Virus genome (UHGV): UHGV-0365212
Source of the DNA: a virus
Length of the DNA stretch: 13,094 nt
Strand: one strand, 5' to 3'
Shown here: positions 250 through 11,145 of the stretch, one piece after another
How the letters are laid out: the number at the start of each line of letters is the position of its first letter
Position numbering within the stretch: position 1 is the stretch's first letter
Notes under the pieces: generated by a model
Databases searched by the model: none
Seen by the model: the letters and a program-made list of their open reading frames with translations, nothing else
What the model was told of the DNA's origin: nothing
Position numbers and translations under genes: made by a program

Positions 250-930
250 TCATCGCCATTGCTCCCCAAATACAAAACCAATTTCAGCCAGTGCCTCGTC
301 CATTTTTTCGATGAACTCCGGCACCATCTCGTTAAAACTCGCCATGTACTTTTCATCCCGCTCAACCACGACATAATGCAGTCCTTCACGCTTCATACGC
401 GGGTCATAGTTGGCAAAGTACCAGGCATCTTTTTGTGTCACCCACATGCTGTACTGCACCTGGGCCATGTAAGCCGATTTTATGGCCTCGAAACCACCGA
501 GCCGGAACTTCATGAAATCCCGGGAGGTAAACGGGCATTTCAGTTCAAGGCCGTTGCCGTCACTGCATAAACCATCGGGAGAGCAGGCGGTGCGCATACT
601 TTCGTCGCGATAGATGATCGGGGATTCAGTAACATTCACGCCGGAAGTGAACTCAAAGAGGGCTCTGGCGTCGTTCTCGTACTGTTTTCCCCAGGCCAGC
701 GCCTTAGCGTTAACTTCCGGAGCCACACCGGTGCAAACCTCGGCAAGCAGGGTGTGGAAGTAGGACATTTTCATGTCAGGCCACTTCTTTCCGGAGCGGG
801 GTTTTGCTATCACATTGTGAACTTCTGAAGCGGTGATGACGCCGAGCCGTAATTTGTGCCATGCATCATCCCCCTGTTCGACAGCTCTCACGTCGATCCC
901 GGTACGCTGCAGGATAATGTCCGGTGTCAT
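250..930 (-). CDS. exo: lambda exonuclease (Red-alpha, 5'-3' dsDNA exonuclease), 226 aa
   Basis: ORF-track translation [27 protein letters not shown]...GFVFGEQWR matches my recollection of phage lambda Exo almost residue for residue; start codon overlaps bet stop (ATGA), as in lambda. Confidence 0.95.
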
Positions 931-1712
931 GCTGCCACCTTCTGCTCAGTGGCTTTCTGTTTCAGGAATCCAAGAGCTTTCACTGCTTCGGCCTGTGTCA
1001 GTTCTGACGATGCGCGAATGTCGCGGCGAAATATCTGGGAACAGAGCGGCAATAAGTCGTCATCCCATGTTTTATCCAGGGCAATCAGCAGAGTGTTAAT
1101 CTCCTGCATGGTTTCATCGTTAACCGGAGTGATGTCGCGTTCCGGCTGACGTTCTGCAGTGTATGCGGTATTTTCGACAATGCGCTCGGCTTCATCCTTG
1201 TCATAGATACCAGCAAATCCGAAGGCCAGACGGGCACACTGAATCATGGCTTTATGCCGTAACATCCGTTTGGGATGCGACTGCCACGGTCCGGTGATTT
1301 CTCTGCCTTCGCGGGTTTTGAATGGTTCGCGGCGGCATTCATCCATCCACTCGGTAACGCAGATCGGATGATTGCGGTCTTTGCGGTAAATCCGGCATGT
1401 GCAGGATTCGTTGTCCTGTTCAAAGTCCATGCCGTCAAACTGCTGGTTTTCGTTGATGATGCGGGACCAGCCATCAACGCCCACCACCGGAACGATGCCG
1501 TTCTGCTTATCAGGGAAGGCGTAAATTTCTTTCGTCCACGGATTAAGACCGTACTGGTTGGCGACGATCAGCAATGCGATGAACTGCGCATCGCTGGCAT
1601 CACCTTTAAATGCCGTCTGGCGAAGAGTGGTGATCAGTTCCTGTGGGTCGACAGAATCCATGCCGACTCGTTCAGCCAGCTTCCCAGCCAGCGTTGCGAG
1701 TGCTGTACTCAT
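927..1712 (-). CDS. bet: lambda Beta single-strand annealing protein (Red-beta), 261 aa
   Basis: Translation [37 protein letters not shown]...KATEQKVAA matches recalled lambda Bet over its full length; sits between gam and exo on the same strand. Confidence 0.95.
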
Positions 1713-1717
1713 CCGTT

Positions 1718-2014
1718 TTATACCTCTGAATCAATATCAACCTGGTGGTGAGCAATGGTTTCAACCATGTACCGGATGTGTTCCGCCATGCGCTCCTGAA
1801 ACTCAACATCGTCATCAAATGCACGGGTAATGGCTTTTTTGCTGGCCCCGTGGCGTTGCAAATGATCGATGCATAGCGATTCAAACAGGTGCTGGGGCAG
1901 GCCTTTTTCCATGTCGTCTGCCAGTTCTGCCTCTTTCTCTTCACGGGCGATCTGCTGGTAGTGACGCGCCCAGCTCTGAGCCTCAAGACGATCCTGAATG
2001 TAATAAGCGTTCAT
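1718..2014 (-). CDS. gam: lambda Gam, RecBCD inhibitor; only the 98-aa short form (GamS) is encoded because the upstream long-form start is lost at a deletion junction
   Basis: Translation [44 protein letters not shown]...[10 protein letters not shown] matches recalled lambda Gam C-terminal 98 aa; AGGAG Shine-Dalgarno 7 nt upstream of the ATG; lambda-like 5' sequence persists only to about position 2090. Confidence 0.9.
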
Positions 2015-2350
2015 GGCTGAACTCCTGAAAATGGCTGTGAAAATATCGCCCGCGAAATGCCAGGCTGATTAGGAAAACAGGAAAGGGGATTAGTGATTGA
2101 GGCCGTTACCGCGTCCGTCGAGAAAAACTTCCACGAGCAAATCACGGGTATAAGTGCGCTCGATGCCGCGATGCAGATAAAGCCGTCCGCGTAAATTAGC
2201 TGATGCAGTCCAGGTACCGGATACTGAAAAATTACGCCAAAACGCTGACAGTAACAGGCGTATGAAGTCAGAGATAACGACCGGTTGATACCGTTTTATT
2301 GATTTTTGCTGGCAATTGTCATGCTGGTCTGATTTTTGTGGAGAAAGTTG

Positions 2351-2734
2351 ATGCGTGATATTCAGATGGTTCTTGAGCGTTGGGGGGCATGGGCGGCTAA
2401 TAACCATGAGGATGTGACCTGGTCGTCCATTGCTGCCGGTTTTAAGGGATTGCTTCCTTCAAAAGTAAAATCCCGTCCGCAATGCTGTGATGATGACGCG
2501 ATGATCGTTTGCGGGTGCATGGCCCGTCTGAAAAAGAACAACAGCGATTTGCACGATTTATTAGTGGATTATTATGTCGGCGGTATGACATTCATGTCAC
2601 TGGCAAGTAAGCATCGTTGCTCTGATGGTTATATCGGGAAAAAGTTACAGAAGGCTGAGGGAATAATTGAAGGGATGTTAATGGCATTAGATATCCGGTT
2701 AGAGATGGATATCGTTGTTAATAACTCTAATTAA
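2351..2734 (+). CDS. Q: late-gene antiterminator Q, short phage-21/DLP12 QuuD-like type (127 aa)
   Basis: ATG at 2351 preceded by GGAGA with 7-nt spacer (the ORF-track start at 2336 is a TTG); product [26 protein letters not shown]...[16 protein letters not shown] is Cys-rich and resembles the short Q family as I recall it; positioned just upstream of a porin/lysis module as in DLP12-type prophages. Confidence 0.7.
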
Positions 2735-2751
2735 TACGCCAATTATTTACT

Positions 2752-2785
2752 AAAAGTTATTAAAAATGGGGCGTTGAAACGCCCC
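2752..2785 (-). terminator. candidate intrinsic terminator for the porin gene (minus strand)
   Basis: GC-rich hairpin GGGGCG-ttgaaa-CGCCCC at 2768-2785; on the minus strand it is followed by a U-rich tract (AUUUUUAAUAACUUUUA); about 140 nt downstream of the porin stop. Confidence 0.45.
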
Positions 2786-2873
2786 CAAAAATAAAGGGTA
2801 ATATATAACAGAAGGTTTGTATAGTTAGAAGCAAGGTTGTGCTTCTAAAGGAAGTGGCTTGAGGGAGCCACTT

Positions 2874-2915
2874 ATATGTTGGGGAGGCAAAGCCTCCCAC
2901 AACATATCTTTTAGT
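2874..2915 (+). terminator. long imperfect hairpin followed by CUUUU; candidate terminator downstream of Q (tR'-like?)
   Basis: About 15-bp stem ATATGTTGGGGAGGC / GCCTCCC(A)CAACATAT with one bulge and AAA loop, then CTTTTAG on the plus strand. Confidence 0.4.
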
Positions 2916-2922
2916 AATCAAA

Positions 2923-4005
2923 TTAGAACTGGTAAACCATACCTACAGCAACGATATCATCGGTAGCAACGCCAGATGCTTTCGTGAAATCGCTCTTATC
3001 AATCAGGTTGATTTTGTAGTCAACAAAAGTGGACATATTTTTGTTGAAGTAATAGGTTGCACCTACATCAACATATTCAACCAGGTCCTGATCACCCCAA
3101 ACACCCAAGTCTTTTCCTTTAGAATGCAGGTAAGCAACGGATGGACGCAGGCCGAAGTCGAACTGATATTGTGCAACAGCTTCGAAGTTTTGTGCTTTGT
3201 TGGCAATATGGTTATTACCAAAAACAGTCATGTTCTGGGTTTCAGAATAGGTGGTGGCCAGATAGATGTTGTTCGCATCATATTTCAGACCAGCTGCCCA
3301 TACTTCAGCATTTTGACCAGAAGCATTCAGACCGTTGTTACCGTAGATAACCTGATTATTAGTGCGATCAGATTTAGCATAGGTTGCACCCACGCCGAAT
3401 CCTTCATACTCATAAGTAGTTGAGAAACCGAAACCATCGCCATTAGCTTCAGTTACTTCTTTTCGGTCATTTTTGCCCTGATACTGAGCTGCAAAGTTCA
3501 GGCCATCAACCAGACCAAAGAAGTCGTTGTTACGATAAGTTGCAACACCTGTGGTGCGACCAGTCATGAATACATCTGTTTGGGTCCAGGTATCGCCACC
3601 GAATTCTGGCAGAACGTCGGTCCATGCACCAATATCGTATGCTACACCGTAGTTACGGCCATAATCGATGGAGCCGTAGTCACCGAATTTCAGGCCAGCG
3701 AAGGCAAGACGGGTTTTATCTTTGGAGGAACCTTGAGATTCAGCGCGGTTGCCTTTGAATTCATATTCCCACTGACCGAAACCAGTCAGTTGATCGTTGA
3801 TTTGGGTTTCACCTTTGAAGCCAAGACGGGCATAAGTAGTATCACCATCATCTGCATCATTAGAGGAGAAGTAGTGCTTAGCATTAACTTTCCCGTACAG
3901 ATCCAGCTTGTTACTGTCTTTATTATAAATTTCAGCTGCCTGAGCAGACATCGCCATCAGTACTGATGCAGCTACAGCAGAAATTGCCACTGTTAATTTT
4001 TTCAT
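2923..4005 (-). CDS. nmpC: prophage-encoded OmpC/OmpF-family general porin (NmpC/Lc-like), 360 aa with signal peptide
   Basis: Translation starts [30 protein letters not shown] (signal peptide) and ends ...VGMVYQF (C-terminal Phe typical of porin beta-barrels); alternating Tyr/Gly-rich strands; AAGGG RBS; sits between Q and the holin on the opposite strand as nmpC/lc does in DLP12/PA-2-type prophages (from memory). Confidence 0.88.
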
Positions 4006-4434
4006 CGTGAGCCCTTTTTTTTGAACTATTATTAAAAAATGATGTCACTGCGCGATAAATATTCATCTAATCAATGTGATTATTTCAAGATGTAAGTTTT
4101 GGTTTCTCGTTTAATTTGTGAAGTAGATCTCTATTTTTATCTGAACTTTTTTCTATCGAATCCTATTCATGGCTCTTGGCTGAATAAAAATAAATCTATT
4201 AGCCAATTTATATTAATGGCTGTTATTTATAAGCGCTCTATAATTTGAAGGTTCAATTTAAATTGGCTAAAAATAACGCTGGAAATTATTTGTTGGTTAT
4301 TTGTTGAGATTTGCTTATGTATTTGTAGTGGTGTTTTCAATACTCGGTAGCATTCTCGCAAATATCATTTAGTGGTTTACGTACGTAAAAAATTGGTTAT
4401 GCTGTTAAGATTGGTTACTTCGTCACACAGCTTA

Positions 4435-4466
4435 AACCCGCCGTCGAGCGGGTTTTTCCATTTTTT
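4435..4466 (+). terminator. intrinsic terminator-like hairpin about 110 nt upstream of the holin (possible tR'-type element of the late promoter region)
   Basis: AACCCGC-cgtcga-GCGGGTT stem (4435-4454) followed by TTTTT cca TTTTTT. Confidence 0.5.
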
Positions 4467-4578
4467 GAGTCTCGATATTAGCTGATAACCCAATACCTGA
4501 GTTATTCACTGACTCCGAGTCTGTTACGTTTCGTAGTATTCCCTCAATTTACACCCGCTTTGTCTGCGAGGTGGGGTT

Positions 4579-4794
4579 ATGAAATCCATGGATAAGTTAA
4601 CAACGGGTGTCGCCTATGGCACCTCAGCAGGTAGTGCCGGGTACTGGTTTTTACAGCTGCTCGATAAAGTCACGCCCTCACAGTGGGCAGCAATAGGTGT
4701 GCTGGGTAGCCTGGTATTTGGCCTGCTGACGTACCTGACAAACCTTTATTTCAAGATTAAAGAAGATAAGCGCAAGGCTGCGAGAGGTGAATAA
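4579..4794 (+). CDS. S: class II holin, phage-21 S21-type pinholin with dual-start motif (71/68 aa)
   Basis: [26 protein letters not shown]...[13 protein letters not shown]; Met1-Lys2-Ser3-Met4 dual-start arrangement; two predicted TM segments; strong GAGGTGGGG RBS; stop overlaps endolysin start (TAATG). Confidence 0.9.
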
Positions 4795-5291
4795 TGCCTC
4801 CATCATTACGAAAAGCTGTTGCTGCTGCTATTGGTGGCGGGGCTATTGCTATAGCATCTGTGTTAATCACTGGCCCAAGTGGTAACGATGGTCTGGAAGG
4901 TGTGAGACATAATCCTTACAAAGACATAGTTGGTGTATGGACTGTATGTTACGGGCATACAGGAAAAGACATCATTCCCGGTAAAACGTATACCGAAGCA
5001 GAGTGCAAAGCCCTCCTGAATAAAGACCTTGCCACTGTCGCCAGACAAATTAACCGGTACATCAAAGTCGATATACCGGAAACAACGCGCGGCGCTCTTT
5101 ACTCGTTCGTCTACAACGTGGGTGCTGGCAATTTCAGAACATCGACGCTTCTTCGCAAAATAAACCAGGGTGATATTAAAGGCGCATGTGATCAGCTACG
5201 GCGCTGGACATACGCTGGCGGTAATCAATGGAAAGGACTGATGACTCGCCGTGAGATTGAGCGTGAAGTCTGTTTGTGGGGGAAACAATGA
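4794..5291 (+). CDS. R: SAR endolysin (T4-lysozyme-family muramidase with N-terminal signal-arrest-release segment), R21-like, 165 aa
   Basis: N-terminal weakly hydrophobic Gly/Ala-rich segment [20 protein letters not shown], then E-x8-D-x5-T catalytic spacing ([18 protein letters not shown]) as in T4 lysozyme; immediately follows the holin. Confidence 0.9.
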
Positions 5292-5746
5292 GCAGAGTAA
5301 CCGCGATTATCTCCGCTCTGGTTATCTGCATCATCGTCTGCCTGTCATTGGCTGTTAATCATTACCGTGATAACGCAATCGCCTACAAAGAGCAGCGCGA
5401 TAACAAGGCCAGTGAACTGGAGAAGGCGAACGCCACCATCGCTGACATGCGGAAGCGTCAACGTGATGTAGCAGAACTCGACGCAAGATACACAAAGGAG
5501 CTTGCTGATGCTAACGCGACTATCGAAAGTCTCCGTGCTGATGTTTCTGCTGGGCGTAAGCGCCTGCAAGTCGCCGCCACCTGTGCAAAGTCAACGACCG
5601 GAGCCAGCGGCATGGGCGATGGAGAAAGCCCAGGACTTACAGCAGATGCTGAACTCAATTATTACCGTCTCCGAAGTGGAATCGACAAGATAACCGCGCA
5701 GGTTAACTACCTGCAGGAATACATCAGGACGCAATGCCTGAAATAA
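5288..5746 (+). CDS. Rz: i-spanin Rz (inner-membrane spanin subunit), about 152 aa
   Basis: ATG at 5288 overlaps the endolysin stop (ATGA); [38 protein letters not shown]... with N-terminal TM helix and coiled-coil region; closely resembles recalled lambda Rz. The ORF-track start at 5276 is a GTG four codons upstream; I prefer the ATG. Confidence 0.88.
5508..5693 (+). CDS. Rz1: o-spanin Rz1 (outer-membrane lipoprotein) embedded in the +1 frame of Rz, 61 aa
   Basis: AAAGGAG RBS 7 nt upstream of ATG 5508; [20 protein letters not shown] with lipobox-like VSAC, then proline-rich [13 protein letters not shown]; wholly inside Rz in another frame as in lambdoid spanin pairs. Confidence 0.8.
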
Positions 5747-5778
5747 TTTTTTTGCAAATCACAAAGTCCATTTAATGA

Positions 5779-5802
5779 GCCTCGCGATGCGGGGCTTTTT
5801 TT
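5779..5802 (+). terminator. rho-independent terminator after the lysis cassette
   Basis: GCCTCGC-gat-GCGGGGC 7-bp stem (one G-U pair) followed by seven T; 33 nt downstream of Rz stop. Confidence 0.7.
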
Positions 5803-5951
5803 ACATCTGAATTTCACAGCGCATCTCACGCGCATATTACATCACCCGAGCCTTTCAGAAAGTTGAGCCTGAGAACTGCCGTATATGGTGGCGACCATCT
5901 CGGGGCGGCTTTTCTGTGAGACAGGCTCACTTTCTAAAAGGTAAAGACGCT

Positions 5952-6440
5952 ATGAACCAATTAGAAGAAAAGCTTCAAAGAATGATTTCCTTATACAAGG
6001 AAGATAACTGCCAAAAAGTTCCTGAAAACATCGCAGAGTTAATGGAATTGGCAAGTGAATTTTCTGGCATGCTTAAGTCGTCAGGTGTTCGGTCAGCGTT
6101 CTTTGTTGAAATGCTGATGCACGGCGGACTTATGGCAACAATGAGACGTGTAATGGAAGACCAGAGAAAAGAACCTCCTCAGGTATACGTTTTGTCATCG
6201 AAGAAAACTGGGCTAACCAAAATTGGGTATTCATCCAACATTCCACAACGCATCAAATCGCTTGGCAACTCTGGACCAGACTGCTTGAAGCTTGAGTGCC
6301 TGATCCCTGGTGGAAGAGAAACTGAAAACATGCTTCATCGCAAATTTGCCGCAAAGAGAAAGCACGGTGAATGGTTCGCCCTGTCCAAGGATGACATTGA
6401 GGGATTGAAATCTGTAGCGATTACTTCTGATGGCTATTAA
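5952..6440 (+). CDS. T5orf172/MUG113-domain (GIY-YIG-like fold) protein with an uncharacterised ~75-aa N-terminal region; moron between Rz and cos
   Basis: C-terminal half PQVYVLSSKKTGLTKIGYSSNIPQRIKSLGN...ETENMLHRKFAAKRKHGEWFALSKDDI fits the T5orf172 pattern (hydrophobic-YVL, KIGxT/S, R, E..LH..F, GEWF); ATG 5952 preferred over in-frame GTG 5916; AT-rich relative to flanking phage genes; has its own upstream gap after a terminator. Confidence 0.6.
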   Translation: MNQLEEKLQRMISLYKEDNCQKVPENIAELMELASEFSGMLKSSGVRSAFFVEMLMHGGLMATMRRVMEDQRKEPPQVYVLSSKKTGLTKIGYSSNIPQRIKSLGNSGPDCLKLECLIPGGRETENMLHRKFAAKRKHGEWFALSKDDIEGLKSVAITSDGY

Positions 6441-6754
6441 TGCTTGTTTAGAGCAATTTTCATAACAACTCTTCATTACAAAGCCCATCTACTGGTGGGC
6501 TTGATAATGAAACCGTGATTTACATCCCCACAATCCGGGTATGTAAAAGATAGTTCAGGCGAGAACGGATTTAACTAAATCTGTGCGCCACCAGTTAACG
6601 GCAGTACCACGAAACAACCCAAGCCAGTAAGTGGGGAAATAACACCGGCAGCCACTGAAAGATGAACCTCCTGCCTTATGGCAAAAAAGATTCTTTGTGG
6701 TGGCGGACTGATGGAAAGACATCCTAATTTCAGCCAAACATTGAAGGAGTTGTT

Positions 6755-6826
6755 ATGTCAGCAGAAGGTTTCAATAACCCATCAAAATTCCGGGATGAGT
6801 GGGATAGCAGCGTAAAGAGTAAGTGA
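6755..6826 (+). CDS. possible 23-aa small ORF with consensus Shine-Dalgarno (MSAEGFNNPSKFRDEWDSSVKSK)
   Basis: AAGGAG at 6744-6749, 5-nt spacer, ATG 6755; TGA stop at 6824-6826 overlaps a further tiny ATG; no homology recognised; could equally be a decayed gene remnant. Confidence 0.15.
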   Translation: MSAEGFNNPSKFRDEWDSSVKSK

Positions 6827-7118
6827 TGCCATCACAAAAGCCATTCCCTACAGAGTGGCTTTGATAATGGCTTATACCCTACACGGGATAACTTAACTGA
6901 TATCCCTTTTAAAGGATAAAGGTATTCAAGCCTGACACATCATGCGCTGTATCGTCGCCGTATTCCCGTATTAACAGAGACCGTAGCCCGACGGGGAACT
7001 CCTTCTGCGCGAGTGTGCGGGAATAATCAAAAACGATGCACACCGGGGTTACCGGGTACACATATTTCATCATGCCAGCGAGTCCGGTTCTGGCACGGAA
7101 GAAACCGGACGTTATGAT

Positions 7119-7529
7119 TTAGTGCGGAAATATTTGTGTAGTGTTCTGAATGTTCTCAGTAAAGAGTAATGAATTATCAAAGGTATAGTAATACCTTTTG
7201 TTTTCGTGGATATTTGTAATCCATCTGAAAACCCCTGCTGTAGCAAGATTTTTCCTGTATTCGTAAAATGATAACTCTCCTGATTTGAATCCTTTTAATG
7301 TGGCTTCTATAAGGCATTTATTTTTTGAAAATCTTACATTTACAACCTTACCCTGTCCTTTTATTAAAACCGTATTATCGTTTTCAAGAACAAGATGAAT
7401 ATTCTCTGTGGCTAAATAGTAAATGTAATGTGAGACATTGTGACGTTTTAGTTCAGAATAAAACCAGTGATAGTTTAAATTATTTCGCACTTTATCGAAT
7501 ATTTGTTTAAAAATGGCAACCTGAGCCAT
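7119..7529 (-). CDS. DUF1398-like small protein (YbcV / lambda right-arm orf family), 136 aa; AT-rich moron
   Basis: Start assigned to the second in-frame ATG (7529-7527) because GGAAGG lies 7 nt upstream; product [55 protein letters not shown]...; position between the lysis cassette and cos on the minus strand matches ybcV in DLP12 (from memory); roughly one-third G+C by eye. Confidence 0.55.
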
Positions 7530-7533
7530 TGTA

Positions 7534-7559
7534 GTACCTTCCATGTGATATGAAGGTAC
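7534..7559 (-). promoter_or_regulatory. perfect 8-bp inverted repeat (GTACCTTC / GAAGGTAC, 10-nt spacer) overlapping the RBS and first ATG of the DUF1398 gene; possible translational-control hairpin or operator
   Basis: Read directly from the sequence at 7534-7541 and 7552-7559; in the minus-strand mRNA the GGAAGG Shine-Dalgarno would pair with the upstream arm. Confidence 0.35.
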
Positions 7560-7586
7560 CTAGTCTGCACGATTATCTAAATTGCT

Positions 7587-7820
7587 TCAATCTGGTCTGA
7601 CCTGCTTTCTGAGCAATTCAGTAATGTCACTCTTTTCTTTGTTTGCTTCAGGCGAAACTCTTTTTTCTGAGCACAGTCTTCGGCGGCAGGCTTCAATGAC
7701 CCAGGCTGAGAAATTCCCGGACCCTTTTTGATCAAGAGCGATGTTAATTTGTTCAATCATTTGGTTAGGAAAGCGGATGTTGCGGGTTGTTGTTCTGCGG
7801 GTTCTGTTCTTCGTTGACAT
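7587..7820 (-). CDS. small basic protein, YlcI / lambda orf-64-like (DUF3950-type), 77 aa
   Basis: MSTKNRTRRTTTRNIRFPNQMIEQINIALDQKGSGNFSAWVIEACRRRL... resembles the small ORF found just upstream of cos in lambda and DLP12 (ylcI), recalled from memory. Confidence 0.55.
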   Translation of the reverse strand: MSTKNRTRRTTTRNIRFPNQMIEQINIALDQKGSGNFSAWVIEACRRRLCSEKRVSPEANKEKSDITELLRKQVRPD

Positions 7821-8019
7821 GAGGTTGTCCCGTATTCAGTGTCGCTGATTTGTATTGTCTGAAGTTGTTTTTACGTTAAGTTGATGCAGATCAATTAATA
7901 TGATACCTGCGTCATAATTGATTATTTGACGTGGTTTGATGGCGTAGATGCACGTTGTGACATGCAGATGATAATTATTATCATTTTGCGGGTCCTTTCC
8001 GGCGATCCGACAGGTTACG

Positions 8020-8208
8020 GGGCGGCGACCTCGCGGGTTTTCGCTATTTATGAAAATTTTCCGGTTTAAGGTGTTTCCGTTCTTCTTCGTCGTAACTTAA
8101 TGTTTTTATTTAAAATACCCCCTGAAAAGAAAGGAAACGACAGGTGCTGAAAACGGGCTTTTTGGCCTCTGTCGTTTCCTTTCTCTGTTTTTGTCCGTGG
8201 AATGAACA
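8020..8208 (+). other. cos: lambda cohesive-end site: cosN (GGGCGGCGACCT at 8020-8031) followed by the cosB region up to the Nu1 start
   Basis: Sequence ...GACAGGTTACG|GGGCGGCGACCTCGCGGGTTTTCGCTATTTATGAAAATTTTCCGGTTTAAGG... matches the lambda right-end/left-end junction as I recall it, with only scattered substitutions through to the ATG of Nu1. Confidence 0.85.
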
Positions 8209-11145
8209 ATGGAAGTCAACAAAAAGCAGCTGGCTGACATTTTCGGTGCGAGTATCCGTACCATTCAGAACTGGCAGGAGGCTCAGATTGCGTCCATCAG
8301 CCAGAGTGTGGCGCGTTTCTCCTCTGCATCCGGCGTGGAGGTGGACAAGGTCGCTGAAGCCTTCGGGAAGCTGACCACAGAGGGGAATACCAATATCTCC
8401 GGTGTCACGGTGGTGTTCCGGGCCGGTGAGCAGGAGCAGACACCGCCGGAGGGATTTGAATCCTCTGGCTCCGAGACGGTGCTGGGTACGGAAGTGAAAT
8501 ACGACACGCCGATCACCCGGACCATCACGTCGGCAAACATTGACCGTCTGCGTTTTACTTTCGGCGTGCAGGCACTGGTGGAAACCACCTCAAAGGGGGA
8601 CAGGAATCCATCGGAAGTCCGCCTGCTGGTTCAGATACAACGTAACGGTGGCTGGGTGACGGAAAAAGACATCACCATTAAGGGCAAAACCACCTCACAG
8701 TATCTGGCCTCGGTTGTGGTGGATAACCTGCCGCCGCGCCCGTTTAATATCCGGATGCGCAGGATGACGCCGGACAGCACCACAGACCAGCTGCAGAACA
8801 AAACGCTCTGGTCGTCATACACCGAAATTATCGATGTGAAACAGTGCTACCCGAACACGGCACTGGTCGGCGTGCAGGTGGACTCGGAGCAGTTCGGCAG
8901 CCAGCAGGTGAGCCGTAATTATCATCTGCGCGGGCGTATTCTGCAGGTGCCGTCGAATTATAACCCGCAGACGCGGCAATACAGCGGTATCTGGGACGGA
9001 ACGTTTAAACCGGCATACAGCAACAACATGGCCTGGTGTCTGTGGGATATGCTGACCCATCCGCGCTACGGCATGGGGAAACGTCTTGGTGCAGCGGATG
9101 TGGATAAATGGGCGCTGTATGTCATCGGCCAGTACTGCGACCAGTCAGTGCCGGACGGCTTTGGCGGCACGGAACCGCGTATCACCTGTAATGCGTACCT
9201 GACCACACAGCGCAAGGCGTGGGATGTGCTCAGTGATTTCTGCTCGGCGATGCGCTGTATGCCGGTATGGAACGGGCAGACGCTGACGTTCGTGCAGGAC
9301 CGGCCGTCGGATAAGGTGTGGACCTATAACCGCAGTAATGTGGTGATGCCGGATGATGGCGCGCCGTTCCGCTACAGTTTCAGCGCCCTGAAGGACCGCC
9401 ATAATGCCGTTGAGGTGAACTGGATTGACCCGAACAACGGCTGGGAGACGGCGACAGAGCTTGTTGAAGATACGCAGGCCATTGCCCGTTACGGTCGTAA
9501 TGTCACGAAGATGGATGCCTTTGGTTGTACCAGTCGGGGGCAGGCACACCGCGCCGGGCTGTGGCTGATTAAAACGGAACTGCTGGAAACGCAGACCGTG
9601 GACTTCAGCGTGGGTGCTGAAGGGCTTCGCCATGTACCGGGCGATGTCATTGAAATTTGCGATGATGACTATGCCGGTATCAGCATCGGCGGGCGCGTGC
9701 TGGCGGTGAACAGCCAGACCCGGACGCTGACGCTCGACCGTGAAATCACGCTGCCATCTTCCGGCACCACGCTGATAAGCCTGGTTGACGGGCAGGGGAG
9801 TCCGGTCAGCGTGGAGGTCCAGTCCGTCACCGACGGCGTGAAGGTGAAAGTGAGCCGTGTTCCTGACGGCGTTGCAGAATACAGCGTGTGGGGGCTGAAG
9901 CTGCCGACGCTGCGCCAGCGCCTGTTCCGCTGCGTGAGTATCCGTGAGAACGATGACGGCACGTATGCCATCACCGCCGTGCAGCACCTGACTGCCGAAG
10001 TCACCGCAGACAGCGGGGAGTATCAGGTACTGGCCCGCTGGGACACGCCGAAGGTGGTGAAGGGCGTGAGCTTTATGCTTCGCCTGACCGTGGCCGCGGA
10101 TGAAGGCATTGAGCGGCTGGTCAGCACGGCCCGGACGGCGGAAACCACATACCGCTTCACGCAACTGGCGCTGGGGAACTACAGGCTGACAGTCCGGGCA
10201 GTAAATGCCCGGGGACAGCAGGGAGACCCGGCGTCGGTATCGTTCCGGATTGCCGCCCCGGCAGCGCCGTCGCGGATTGAGCTGACACCGGGCTATTTTC
10301 AGATAACCGCCACGCCGCATCTTGCGGTTTATGATCCGACGGTACAGTTTGAGTTCTGGTTCTCGGAAAAGCGGATTGCGGATATCAGGCAGGTTGAAAC
10401 CACAGCCCGCTATCTTGGTACGGCGCTGTACTGGATAGCCGCCAGTATCAATATCAAACCGGGCCATGATTATTACTTTTATATCCGCAGTGTGAACACC
10501 GTTGGCAAATCGGCATTCGTGGAGGCCGTCGGTCGGGCGAGCGATGATGCGGAAGGTTACCTGGATTTTTTCAAAGGCAAGATATTTTCCCTGACATCAG
10601 ACGGAAAGCTGACCGCTAAAAATGCGGATATCAGTGGCAGTGTGAATGCGAACTCAGGGACGCTCAACAATGTCACGATTAATGAGAACTGTCAGATTAA
10701 GGGGAAACTGTCAGCCAACCAGATTGAAGGTGATATTGTCAAAACGGTCAGCAAGTCTTTCCCCCGCACGAACAGTTATGCCAGTGGCACCATCACGGTA
10801 AGAATCAGTGATGATCAGAAATTTGACCGGCAGGTCATGATACCGCCAGTGTTATTCCGCGGTGGTAAGCATGAGAATTTCAACAGTAATAACCAACAGT
10901 CATACTGGTATTCAACCTGCCGGTTAAGAGTGACCCGCAATGGTCAGGAGATTTTTAATCAGTCCACGACGGATGCTCAGGGCGTATTTTCCTCCGTTAT
11001 AGATATGCCTGCCGGACAGGGGACGCTGACACTGACATTCACCGTATCTTCATCAGGAGCGAATAACTGGACACCAACAACCAGTATCAGCGATCTGCTG
11101 GTTGTGGTGATGAAAAAATCCACAGCAGGTATCAGTATCAGCTGA
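8209..11145 (+). CDS. J: in-frame fusion ORF (978 aa): Nu1 residues 1-24, then a ~33-aa segment resembling tape-measure protein H, then tail-tip/host-specificity protein J from about residue 56 to the end; deletion remnant rather than an intact structural gene
   Basis: N-terminus [24 protein letters not shown] equals recalled lambda Nu1; [33 protein letters not shown] matches a motif I recall from lambda gpH; from [26 protein letters not shown] onward the protein tracks lambda J for about 800 residues, with a divergent C-terminal ~230 aa; junctions at about nt 8280 and 8379. Confidence 0.8.

Follow-up and report, generated by a model that had tools for sequence, protein, structure and literature searches.

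A T5orf172-domain gene in the post-lysis cassette slot of a DLP12-type prophage, and the conserved structured leader that precedes it

The viral genome UHGV-0365212 was analysed over a stretch of 13,094 bp (referred to here as the window) that is a DLP12-type lambdoid prophage, and which contains downstream of its lysis genes a gene (coordinates 5952–6440) coding for a T5orf172/MUG113-domain protein. This is an intact gene under selection, and it is one allele of a cassette position that ends the lysis operon of lambdoid and P22-like phages, where a conserved leader RNA precedes a variety of unrelated genes. As one more member of a known and already annotated family the gene has little novelty of its own and alone changes little; the leader, which is absent from Rfam, is the more interesting of the two, and what could matter is that interchangeable genes occupy a single sharply bounded slot closing the lysis operon, all served by one leader with two predicted structures. 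Our preferred reading, to which we give a probability of about 0.45, is that the gene codes for an accessory nuclease that is expressed late, is gated by its leader, depends on Mg, and is directed at DNA outside the packaged phage genome. The principal features are as follows.

5777–5804, plus strand: intrinsic terminator after Rz/Rz1 (GAGCCTCGC-GAT-GCGGGGCTT, then TTTTT)
5952–6440, plus strand: coding sequence (CDS) of the 162-residue T5orf172/MUG113 protein, with a TAA stop codon at 6438–6440; product identical to RefSeq WP_016245257.1
5952–6176, plus strand: N-terminal domain, residues 1–75, an acidic three-helix bundle with an isoelectric point (pI) of 5.4
6177–6437, plus strand: C-terminal T5orf172/MUG113 domain, residues 76–162, with a GIY-YIG-like fold
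6472–6511, plus strand: downstream hairpin (−22.2 kcal/mol, z = −7.2), without a U-tract
6474–6723, no strand assigned: non-coding right flank of the slot, common to HK620, APC_JM3.2, and HK106, and in part to HK97, Sf6, and ST64T (~96% identity)

The gene and its cassette slot

The open reading frame (ORF) in the ORF listing (5916–6440) opens at a GTG codon and would code for 174 residues, but this start lies inside the conserved leader hairpin. Homology between the leader and those of unrelated genes extends to the ATG at 5952 and ends there, so that the product is 162 residues in length; the same start is annotated in the RefSeq and HK106 records. An earlier note made from the sequence alone had given 163 residues; the ORF itself is real. 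Comparison with a Klebsiella homologue (76% amino acid identity) gives a dN/dS ratio of ~0.08 (pN, the proportion of nonsynonymous differences, 0.154; pS, that of synonymous differences, 0.713), with both domains constrained. The gene is present at full length in 80 of 5,426 complete Escherichia coli genomes (1.5%), with copies of 100% identity in 25 or more E. coli genomes.

HK106 gp64 (YP_007151734) is one nucleotide apart from the window gene (99.8% identity of the CDS), and phage Chlobot CDS0088 is the same gene in the same place as in HK106 and the window. The HK106, Chlobot, and RefSeq proteins have 99.4–100% amino acid identity with the window product and no substantive difference from it, and epsilon34 gp68 is a more distant homologue (33% identity) that has both domains and occupies the same slot behind the same leader. 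All of these, and the likewise distant g341c gp64, are described by annotation only, either as ‘GIY-YIG nuclease family protein’ (the label carried by WP_016245257.1) or as ‘hypothetical’. The epsilon34 genome paper and the Nature 2026 Gifsy-1 paper contain nothing on the gene or the slot, and gene 68 is undiscussed in the former.

The earlier note had allowed that the gene might have no profile match or be a decayed fragment, but the matches to the domain profiles are above their cut-offs (see below), the gene is intact and selected, and truncated copies are few (proteins P0010–P0012 and P0015, and loci L106 and L180). Of these decayed copies, which include L180 (match 1089–1346), one has lost residues 1–71 and has unrelated sequence upstream, another is a 95-residue truncated ORF, and the others are several partial proteins in assemblies. 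The claim that the gene is AT-rich holds to the extent that the G+C fraction of the CDS is 0.429, the lysis genes being at 0.497 and the window as a whole at 0.496, but the difference is only modest and the neighbouring DUF1398 gene is at 0.315. Two other copies deserve mention. In a Klebsiella variicola prophage (L014:4001–5187) the 76%-identical homologue has a GTG start and the same type of leader, and overlaps by 4 nt a downstream Endonuclease_NS gene (a non-specific DNA/RNA nuclease), the pair possibly forming a two-nuclease late operon. A 100% identical gene is also present in a 2.9-kb contig of a metagenome-assembled genome labelled as Bacillota (L136, JAEWTL010000129.1), a single locus from the scan of genome contigs for relatives, and is most likely to be misbinned enterobacterial prophage DNA.

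The slot is delimited by sequences shared among phages with quite different genes between them. Both the left flank (5778 to ~5956) and that on the right (6474–6723 and 6853–6920) match HK620 and APC_JM3.2 at 86–96% identity, the ORFs in between being unrelated, and in eight aligned phages the leader homology stops at ATGAA with unrelated ORFs beyond. Among these eight, the occupant is a T5orf172 gene in the window, HK106, and epsilon34 (gp68), a Rha gene with or without ORF11CD3 in a Stx2a phage, APC_JM3.2, and phi80, and a KilA-N gene with or without ORF11CD3 in HK620 (hkbK) and SF3. HK97 gp73 (KilA-N plus P63C) is in the equivalent position, with only the right flank in common.

A scan of viral contigs using the two arms of the leader hairpin as the query matched at least 120 stretches. 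Loci bearing the leader are window 5819–5951, L002–L010, L011, L014, L015–L134, and L178–L181. Among the matches listed for the scan, a start codon is found 19–23 nt past the motif in ~110 of 121, an Rz-like gene is upstream of 72 of the 90 leaders with enough upstream sequence, and there are 107 leader-linked ORFs of at least 100 residues. These include 66 Rha, 22 KilA-N, 8 T5orf172, and 4 ANT/KilAC genes, together with four members of an unassigned 198-residue family and three singletons that are likely chance matches. More than 100 contigs of lambdoid and P22-like phages have the leader ahead of a Rha, KilA-N, or ANT-type gene. Matches to the 901-bp region are present in 1,771 of the 5,426 complete E. 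coli genomes (about a third), mostly reflecting the conserved flanks and not the T5orf172 gene.

We define a rha/kilA-N cassette slot here by a structured leader that runs to the start codon, usually after an Rz terminator, and the window gene has this organization. The slot is the rha position, and the phi80 record has rha directly after the lysis genes. P22 rha (orf201) is described as a late-operon gene, Rha as blocking phage growth in hosts defective in IHF, and rha as IHF-regulated, in PMC4936722 (citing Henthorn and Friedman 1995). The block in IHF-defective hosts argues for tight control of the slot genes. The phi80 rha, HK620 hkbK, and other slot Rha and KilA-N genes are like the window gene in slot, in size, and in the conserved leader, which reaches the ATG; the likeness of the leaders covers phi80, HK620, and the other slot genes. 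Their products have folds unrelated to T5orf172 (Phage_pRha or KilA-N, with or without ORF11CD3 or P63C), and are DNA-binding regulators rather than nuclease-like.

Homology with the K-12 prophage DLP12 spans 2215–5557 and 6943–8279, and window positions 5558–6942 substitute for the DLP12 segment holding the 3′ end of Rz and borD, which occupies the equivalent place in K-12 on the opposite strand. The gene was thus correctly placed in the bor position by the earlier note, as it follows Rz/Rz1 (5276–5746) and precedes cosN (8020–8031). Lambda bor and DLP12 borD lie in the same Rz–cos interval, in DLP12 within an otherwise homologous prophage, but they are on the opposite strand, are unrelated in sequence, and have no common leader.

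The sequence around the CDS is mosaic. In 41 viral contigs the CDS is 98.4–100% identical to that in the window, while in the same contigs the leader is 85–100%, the Rz segment 20–100%, and the downstream flank 76–100% identical; relative to HK106 the identities are 83.8% for Rz, 81.5% for the leader, 99.8% for the CDS, and 96.1% downstream. A T5orf172 subfamily with ~50% amino acid identity occupies two genomic positions, the post-lysis slot at L181 and the gap between the tail-tube and tail-chaperone genes at L011, and L011:3882–4512 and L181:2875–3506 are 88% identical over 635 nt, a span comprising the leader from segment a (see below), the ORF, and the terminator. A further copy (L013) is located between structural genes, within a late structural operon. 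These alignments indicate that the leader, ORF, and terminator move as a block, which fits a homing-type element or an ordinary mosaic module alike. Both presence/absence polymorphism (the slot alleles) and occurrence at several sites between conserved genes (L011 and L181), which we used as marks of homing, are observed; however, no nuclease is needed for the exchange, since Rha and KilA-N alleles with the same leader behave identically.

The leader RNA and its alternative pairings

A leader of ~150 nt separates the Rz terminator from the ATG and ends at the start codon. The terminator has a 9-bp stem with 6 GC pairs and a T-run (−14.1 kcal/mol, z = −3.9), in agreement with the lysis terminator placed by the earlier note at 5779–5802 (the stem is at 5777–5797, followed by the T-run), and a rho-independent terminator is annotated at the equivalent position in the HK106, epsilon34, and phi80 records. 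The leader was previously regarded as the gene's own upstream gap, a description that cannot stand, as it is a conserved structured element shared with the slot rha and kilA-N genes. The predicted minimum free energy is −65.5 kcal/mol for 5770–5965 (z = −4.2 relative to shuffles), and the predicted elements, all on the plus strand, are these.

5819–5833: P0, a small 5′ hairpin (GCGC-ATCTCAC-GCGC) seen in predicted folds
5845–5850: segment a (CCCGAG), the 5′ strand of a:a′, pairing with 5899–5904
5850–5942: long imperfect hairpin, from fold prediction and covariation
5850–5855 (GCCTTT) with 5937–5942 (AAAGGT): outer stem, which includes the Shine-Dalgarno sequence AAGG, 10 nt before the ATG
5878–5882 with 5905–5909: stem c:c′, followed by TTTTCT
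5885–5898: apical hairpin d, inside the long hairpin
5899–5904: segment a′ (CTCGGG), the 3′ strand of a:a′, unpaired in an internal loop of the long hairpin

Both the long hairpin and the a:a′ pairing are backed by compensatory substitutions in the aligned leaders. In an alignment of 35 leaders 86.6% of cells are paired in the long hairpin, and there are changes on both sides at 14 pairs, compared with 3.6 ± 1.5 in shuffles (0/500) and 7–11 in slid controls. The same architecture is predicted in the diverged leaders L011, L014, L006, L178, L179, and L181, with pairing of UUAG-GUAAUGAGUCUUUG with CAAAGGCUCAUUAC-CUAA in L011, of GUGUGAGCCUG with CAGGCUCACAC in L014, and of AGCCUCG with CGAGGCU in L178. 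The P0 stem also covaries (GTGC..GCAC in L011, GCTC..GAGC in L181, and GCGCC..GGCGC in L178/L179), and the alternations between G-U and G-C fit an RNA of the plus strand.

Complementarity of a and a′ is kept in seven variants, which are CCCGAG/CTCGGG, CGAGAG/CTCTCG, CCCAGAG/CTCTGGG, CAAGAGC/GCTCTTG, CATCGAG/TTCGATG, CACAGAG/CTCTGTG, and CGTCGAA/TTCGACG. In every one of them a is positioned just 5′ of the long hairpin and a′ 1–2 nt before c′. A column-wise count on the MAFFT alignment was replaced by a segment-wise one, as the leader classes differ by one base in the register of a′. Segment a is immediately next to the foot of a ~29-bp helix and a′ is near its top, one base from c′, and because of this placement the a:a′ pairing would, on geometric grounds, exclude both the long hairpin and c:c′. 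Predicted folds of truncated transcripts have a:a′ when the transcript ends at 5905 and the long hairpin once it is past 5940.

Several other candidates in the leader were considered and set aside. A pairing of CCUGAGA with UCUCGGG suggested by partial-transcript folding is not kept in L024, L014, and L011, unlike a:a′. A leader peptide (a 19-codon ORF from the ATG at 5885) was rejected on inspection, as class B leaders have no ATG there and other variants are frame-shifted. The one potential IHF site of the leader, at 5951–5963 (TATGAACCAATTA, one mismatch from the consensus WATCAANNNNTTR), overlaps the ATG, and such sites are no more numerous than by chance, with 16 in the window against 12 expected. 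A search of the whole window against Rfam at E ≤ 1 gave no match in or near the leader and two weak chance-level matches elsewhere, and a scan of 261 nt at E ≤ 10 gave only sub-threshold matches, the best with 17.9 bits against a gathering score of 47.

We raise tentatively, and at well short of even odds, the idea that the leader (~5819–5951) is a cis-regulatory RNA switch of lambdoid and P22-like phages not described before, serving as a portable ‘safety catch’ that moves along with possibly toxic late genes of the Rha, KilA-N, ANT, and T5orf172 types and gates them. Such a switch would toggle between the a:a′ conformation and the long hairpin, with its terminator-like stem and sequestered ribosome-binding site. 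The nearest described analogue is the IsrK-orf45-anrP leader of the Salmonella prophage Gifsy-1 (PMC4825925), which is also structured and lambdoid, adopts two alternative conformations of which one is translationally silent, and gates an antirepressor-like gene with a toxic downstream effect. It differs in that the locus is directly downstream of the Q-like antQ and involves a trans-acting small RNA isoform and an upstream ORF (PMC4825925), and there is no sequence or Rfam similarity between the two leaders. If it is a switch, the leader could be the physical basis of the restrained expression of rha (the IHF/Rha phenotype), and regulation of this type would be widespread, since the region matches about a third of E. 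coli genomes and the leader arms are present in at least 120 viral contigs. The system is tractable in HK106, HK97, HK620, P22, and phi80.

The T5orf172 protein and its possible roles

Residues 78–151 of the 162 are covered by matches to the Pfam families MUG113 (PF13455; 7.4e-15, 55.7 bits against a cut-off of 22.3) and T5orf172 (PF10544; 3.3e-10, 40.8 bits against a cut-off of 20), and the motif elements from which the domain was first recognized (VYVL, KIGYSS, R, E..LHRKF, and GEWF) are present, so the assignment to T5orf172 is sound. The superfamily is very large (38,349 representatives at E ≤ 0.001). No significant match to the Pfam model of GIY-YIG proper was obtained at E ≤ 0.01, the PDB sequence profile search gave no meaningful match, and the NCBIfam search gave none. 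An AlphaFold model built with the family alignment is confident, with a predicted local distance difference test score (pLDDT) of 87 overall and of ~90 or more over the N-terminal bundle, and has N-terminal helices at residues 3–20, 23–43, and 49–71 followed by a basic C-terminal domain (pI 9.4) with the order beta-beta-alpha-beta-alpha-beta-alpha. Fold matching identifies the GIY-YIG alpha/beta fold, a three-stranded sheet with flanking helices, and the matches include the GIY-YIG defence nuclease PD-T4-3, bearing out the relationship to GIY-YIG proteins proposed earlier.

The motif residues in the window protein are Y79, K90-I91-G92, R100 (eight residues after the motif Gly), E125, H129, and E140-W141-F142. 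Y79, K90, I91, G92, R100, E125, and E140 are invariant among 53 diverse T5orf172 proteins, and H129, G139, W141, and F142 are conserved in at least 90% of them, all four being present here. The earlier note had asked whether the GIY-YIG catalytic residues are conserved, and this is so for the first Tyr (Y79), the Arg (R100), and the Glu (E125), but not for the second Tyr.

The N-terminal 75 residues, which the earlier note was unable to assign, remain so: the three-helix bundle that they form matches nothing in Pfam, NCBIfam, or the PDB sequences, and its fold matches are of a generic type only (MIT and katanin-type domains and designed proteins, for example). Among 1.84 billion representative proteins searched, this domain occurs together with T5orf172 or in truncated fragments, in proteins of ~160 residues, and in the searches run it was never joined to another type of domain.

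T5orf172 domains had been called poorly characterised, which is outdated in the light of work on Odn (Gp88) of the vibriophage ICP1 (PMC10448857, PMC8263062) and of a survey of a class of putative T5orf172 homing endonucleases (PMC10448857). Odn is a nuclease that depends on a conserved Glu, according to PMC10448857 (citing the Odn study), and it keeps the catalytic Arg and Glu (PMC8263062). It resembles the window protein in having a C-terminal T5orf172 domain with Arg and Glu kept and no helix-1 His or Tyr, and is a phage-encoded, origin-directed conflict nuclease with an N-terminal specificity domain (PMC8263062). However, the N-terminus of Odn is a DNA-binding domain of the RepA_N type, copied from the satellite that it targets, whereas that of the window protein is the acidic three-helix bundle, which shows no sign of DNA binding; Odn is also larger, is from a lytic phage, and has no sequence similarity to the window protein beyond the domain. 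In ICP1, T5-like phages, and others, the putative homing endonucleases have the nuclease domain family in common with the window protein; their genes likewise lie between those of essential late operons, close to genes for terminase or structural proteins, and at boundaries of genetic exchange. They differ in that 87% carry Zn-finger DNA-binding domains (CapR, DUF723, or DUF4397; PMC10448857), whereas the window protein has none and is much smaller, and it is the window gene that has its slot and leader in common with non-nuclease genes.

The expression regime is, by analogy, likely to be late lytic rather than one of lysogenic conversion, because rha is a late-operon gene in P22 and is in the corresponding post-lysis position in phi80. 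On the preferred reading, a late transcript antiterminated by Q would read through the Rz terminator and the terminator-like stem in the leader, and the leader would gate translation, making this a tightly controlled late lytic gene and not a moron expressed in the lysogen. The product would be a Mg-dependent DNA endonuclease or nickase; since it has no recognisable DNA-binding domain, its targeting or regulation would fall to the N-terminal bundle, by way of a protein partner or of oligomerisation. The target would be non-packaged DNA, such as that of the host, of a co-resident prophage or satellite, or of rival slot alleles, and the gene would have a conflict or accessory function that the phage can do without, as it can without the Rha and KilA-N alternatives. 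If the leader is the switch suggested above, the T5orf172 cassette would be a nuclease payload in a captured regulated slot, moving with its leader between late-operon sites. The system bears on the broader questions of the restraint that temperate phages put on toxic late accessory genes, and of whether T5orf172 nucleases serve in coliphages as homing elements or as weapons against rivals.

Several observations count against a leader-gated nuclease. Compared with canonical GIY-YIG nucleases (I-TevI, SLX1, UvrC, Eco29kI, and PD-T4-3), the second Tyr is replaced by Lys (K90) and helix 1 after R100 (R100-IKSLGNSGP) contains no His or Tyr, and catalysis is therefore not assured, although both are the usual T5orf172 deviation and are seen in the active Odn (PMC8263062). 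No target is suggested by the N-terminal domain, and the other slot occupants are DNA-binding regulators and not nucleases, such that a shared position does not imply a shared activity. The a:a′ pairing is short (6–8 bp) and taken singly is not rare, occurring in 1–25% of shuffles; its support comes instead from the recurrence of compensation at fixed positions across the seven variants. Finally, the prophage is a remnant, and late expression may never occur in this host.

Three alternatives have to be weighed. One is that this is a free-standing homing-type endonuclease that cuts slot alleles without the gene (rha, kilA-N, bor) in lambdoid phages that co-infect or share the host, and is copied in by recombinational repair. 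Phage T4 reportedly restrains its homing endonucleases by hairpin-sequestered ribosome-binding sites (Gott et al. 1988; Gibb and Edgell 2010), and the near-constancy of the CDS in the 41 contigs with mosaic leaders, Rz genes, and flanks, the presence of the module at two genomic positions (L011 and L181), and the L013 copy in a late structural operon are all in keeping with homing. Phage T5orf172 genes are moreover regarded as homing endonuclease genes, and are found clustered at recombination boundaries and close to terminase genes (35% of neighbourhoods; PMC10448857). The main obstacle is that there is no DNA-binding domain such as the Zn-fingers of the surveyed proteins, the N-terminal bundle being acidic, without a Pfam match, and similar to bundles that mediate protein interactions. 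In addition, equally sharp junctions and the same leader are seen with Rha and KilA-N alleles, which are not nucleases, so that ordinary homologous recombination in the conserved flanks suffices for the exchange, and T5orf172 is a minority allele, constituting ~8% of the sampled ORFs (among the matches listed) and present in 1.5% of E. coli genomes. We consider homing unlikely. A non-catalytic regulator, in which T5orf172 is a DNA- or protein-binding module doing a job like that of Rha, KilA-N, or Ant (antirepressor-like cross-talk with satellites or other prophages, for instance), would account for the slot, leader, and size class (160–235 residues) shared with the Rha, KilA-N, and ANT alleles, as well as for the missing canonical second Tyr and helix-1 His/Tyr. 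It is chiefly at odds with the invariance, in 53 divergent relatives, of the motif as a whole, including its catalytic-type Arg and Glu; R100 and E125 are under strong purifying selection, and the only T5orf172 protein tested is an active Glu-dependent nuclease (PMC10448857, citing the Odn study). This makes a purely regulatory role rather improbable.

The remaining alternative, favoured by the earlier note, is an autonomous moron expressed in the lysogen, serving as a determinant of lysogenic conversion or of anti-phage defence. The bor gene, whose place it takes, codes for a lipoprotein expressed in the lysogen, and the gene is intact in a decayed prophage, has a G+C fraction below that of its neighbours (0.429 against 0.497), and is bracketed by a terminator and a strong hairpin. 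A defence role could draw on the fold match to PD-T4-3 and on a weak partial PADLOC match to the candidate PDC-S57 (E = 7e-6, 23.8 bits), but that match (residues 73–146) spans only the common T5orf172 domain, and no PADLOC system partner genes are present. A moron is defined by insertion of a promoter, gene, and terminator in a phage operon (PMC3594210, and general knowledge), and the main obstacle here is the lack of a promoter combined with the predicted sequestration of the ribosome-binding site. A consensus scan of 5800–5951 found no sigma-70-like promoter, although one of a weak or non-sigma-70 type could escape such a scan, there is no conserved −35/−10 in the aligned leaders, and a promoter proposed by eye (TTTCAC-17-TATTAC, 5812–5841) is weak and not kept in other leader classes. 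Moreover, the gene has the same orientation as the late operon, P22 has rha, which corresponds to it in position, in its late operon (PMC4936722), and the phages HK106 and Chlobot carry the gene in the same place. The view of a self-contained unit with its own expression signals is thus not borne out, given the results on promoter, orientation, and leader, the last being common to rha and kilA-N genes, and we regard an autonomous moron as very unlikely.

The prophage remnant and the flanks of the slot

The window prophage is a remnant lacking immunity, replication, head, and tail genes, and its other genes and sites are as follows.

250–2014, minus strand: exo (YqaJ), bet (RecT), and gam
2336–2734: Q
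2923–4005, minus strand: porin gene, intact
4579–4794: P21-type holin gene
4794–5291: lysozyme gene
5276–5746: Rz, with Rz1 embedded
7119–7544, minus strand: DUF1398 gene
7587–7820, minus strand: YlcI/DUF3950 gene
8020–8031: cosN, an exact match to GGGCGGCGACCT
8209–11145: Nu1-J fusion ORF
After the 8209–11145 ORF: lom, then the start of a tail-fibre gene

In the Nu1-J ORF the first 29 residues of Nu1 (the terminase small subunit) are in frame with J from its fibronectin type III FNIII-A domain on, reflecting a deletion that took out the head genes and most of the tail genes and left cosN intact. The minus-strand exo, bet, and gam genes adjoin Q directly (250–2734), with N, cI, cro, O, P, and the nin region absent, and this loss of the N-to-nin region is a second large deletion in the remnant. 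The porin is of the NmpC/Lc type (360 residues) and is intact, whereas its K-12 counterpart is split by IS5; the sequence upstream of it (within 2923–4570) is very AT-rich, with G+C fractions of 0.28–0.33. The DUF1398 (YbcV-like) gene is the most AT-rich gene of the stretch (0.315), and is placed between the cassette and cos on the minus strand, as in DLP12.

Downstream of the T5orf172 gene, the hairpin that had been proposed at 6481–6502 is present as the core of the larger one at 6472–6511, but it has no U-tract and is not called as an intrinsic terminator; the copies at L011 and L181, unlike that of the window, have a canonical terminator at their ends. Two small ORFs in the right flank (6555–6737, minus strand, and 6678–6815, plus strand) were rejected as genes, as neither has a Pfam match and an indel in Chlobot is disruptive. 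The hairpins at 6472–6511 and 6828–6871 (−22.2 and −21.1 kcal/mol) are related, with both ending in ...GGCTT(T)GATAATG, and they bracket the conserved 6474–6723 segment, found in many lambdoid and P22-like phages, together with a variable segment at 6724–6852. These paired hairpins may be boundaries of the cassette or elements involved in RNA processing or stability.

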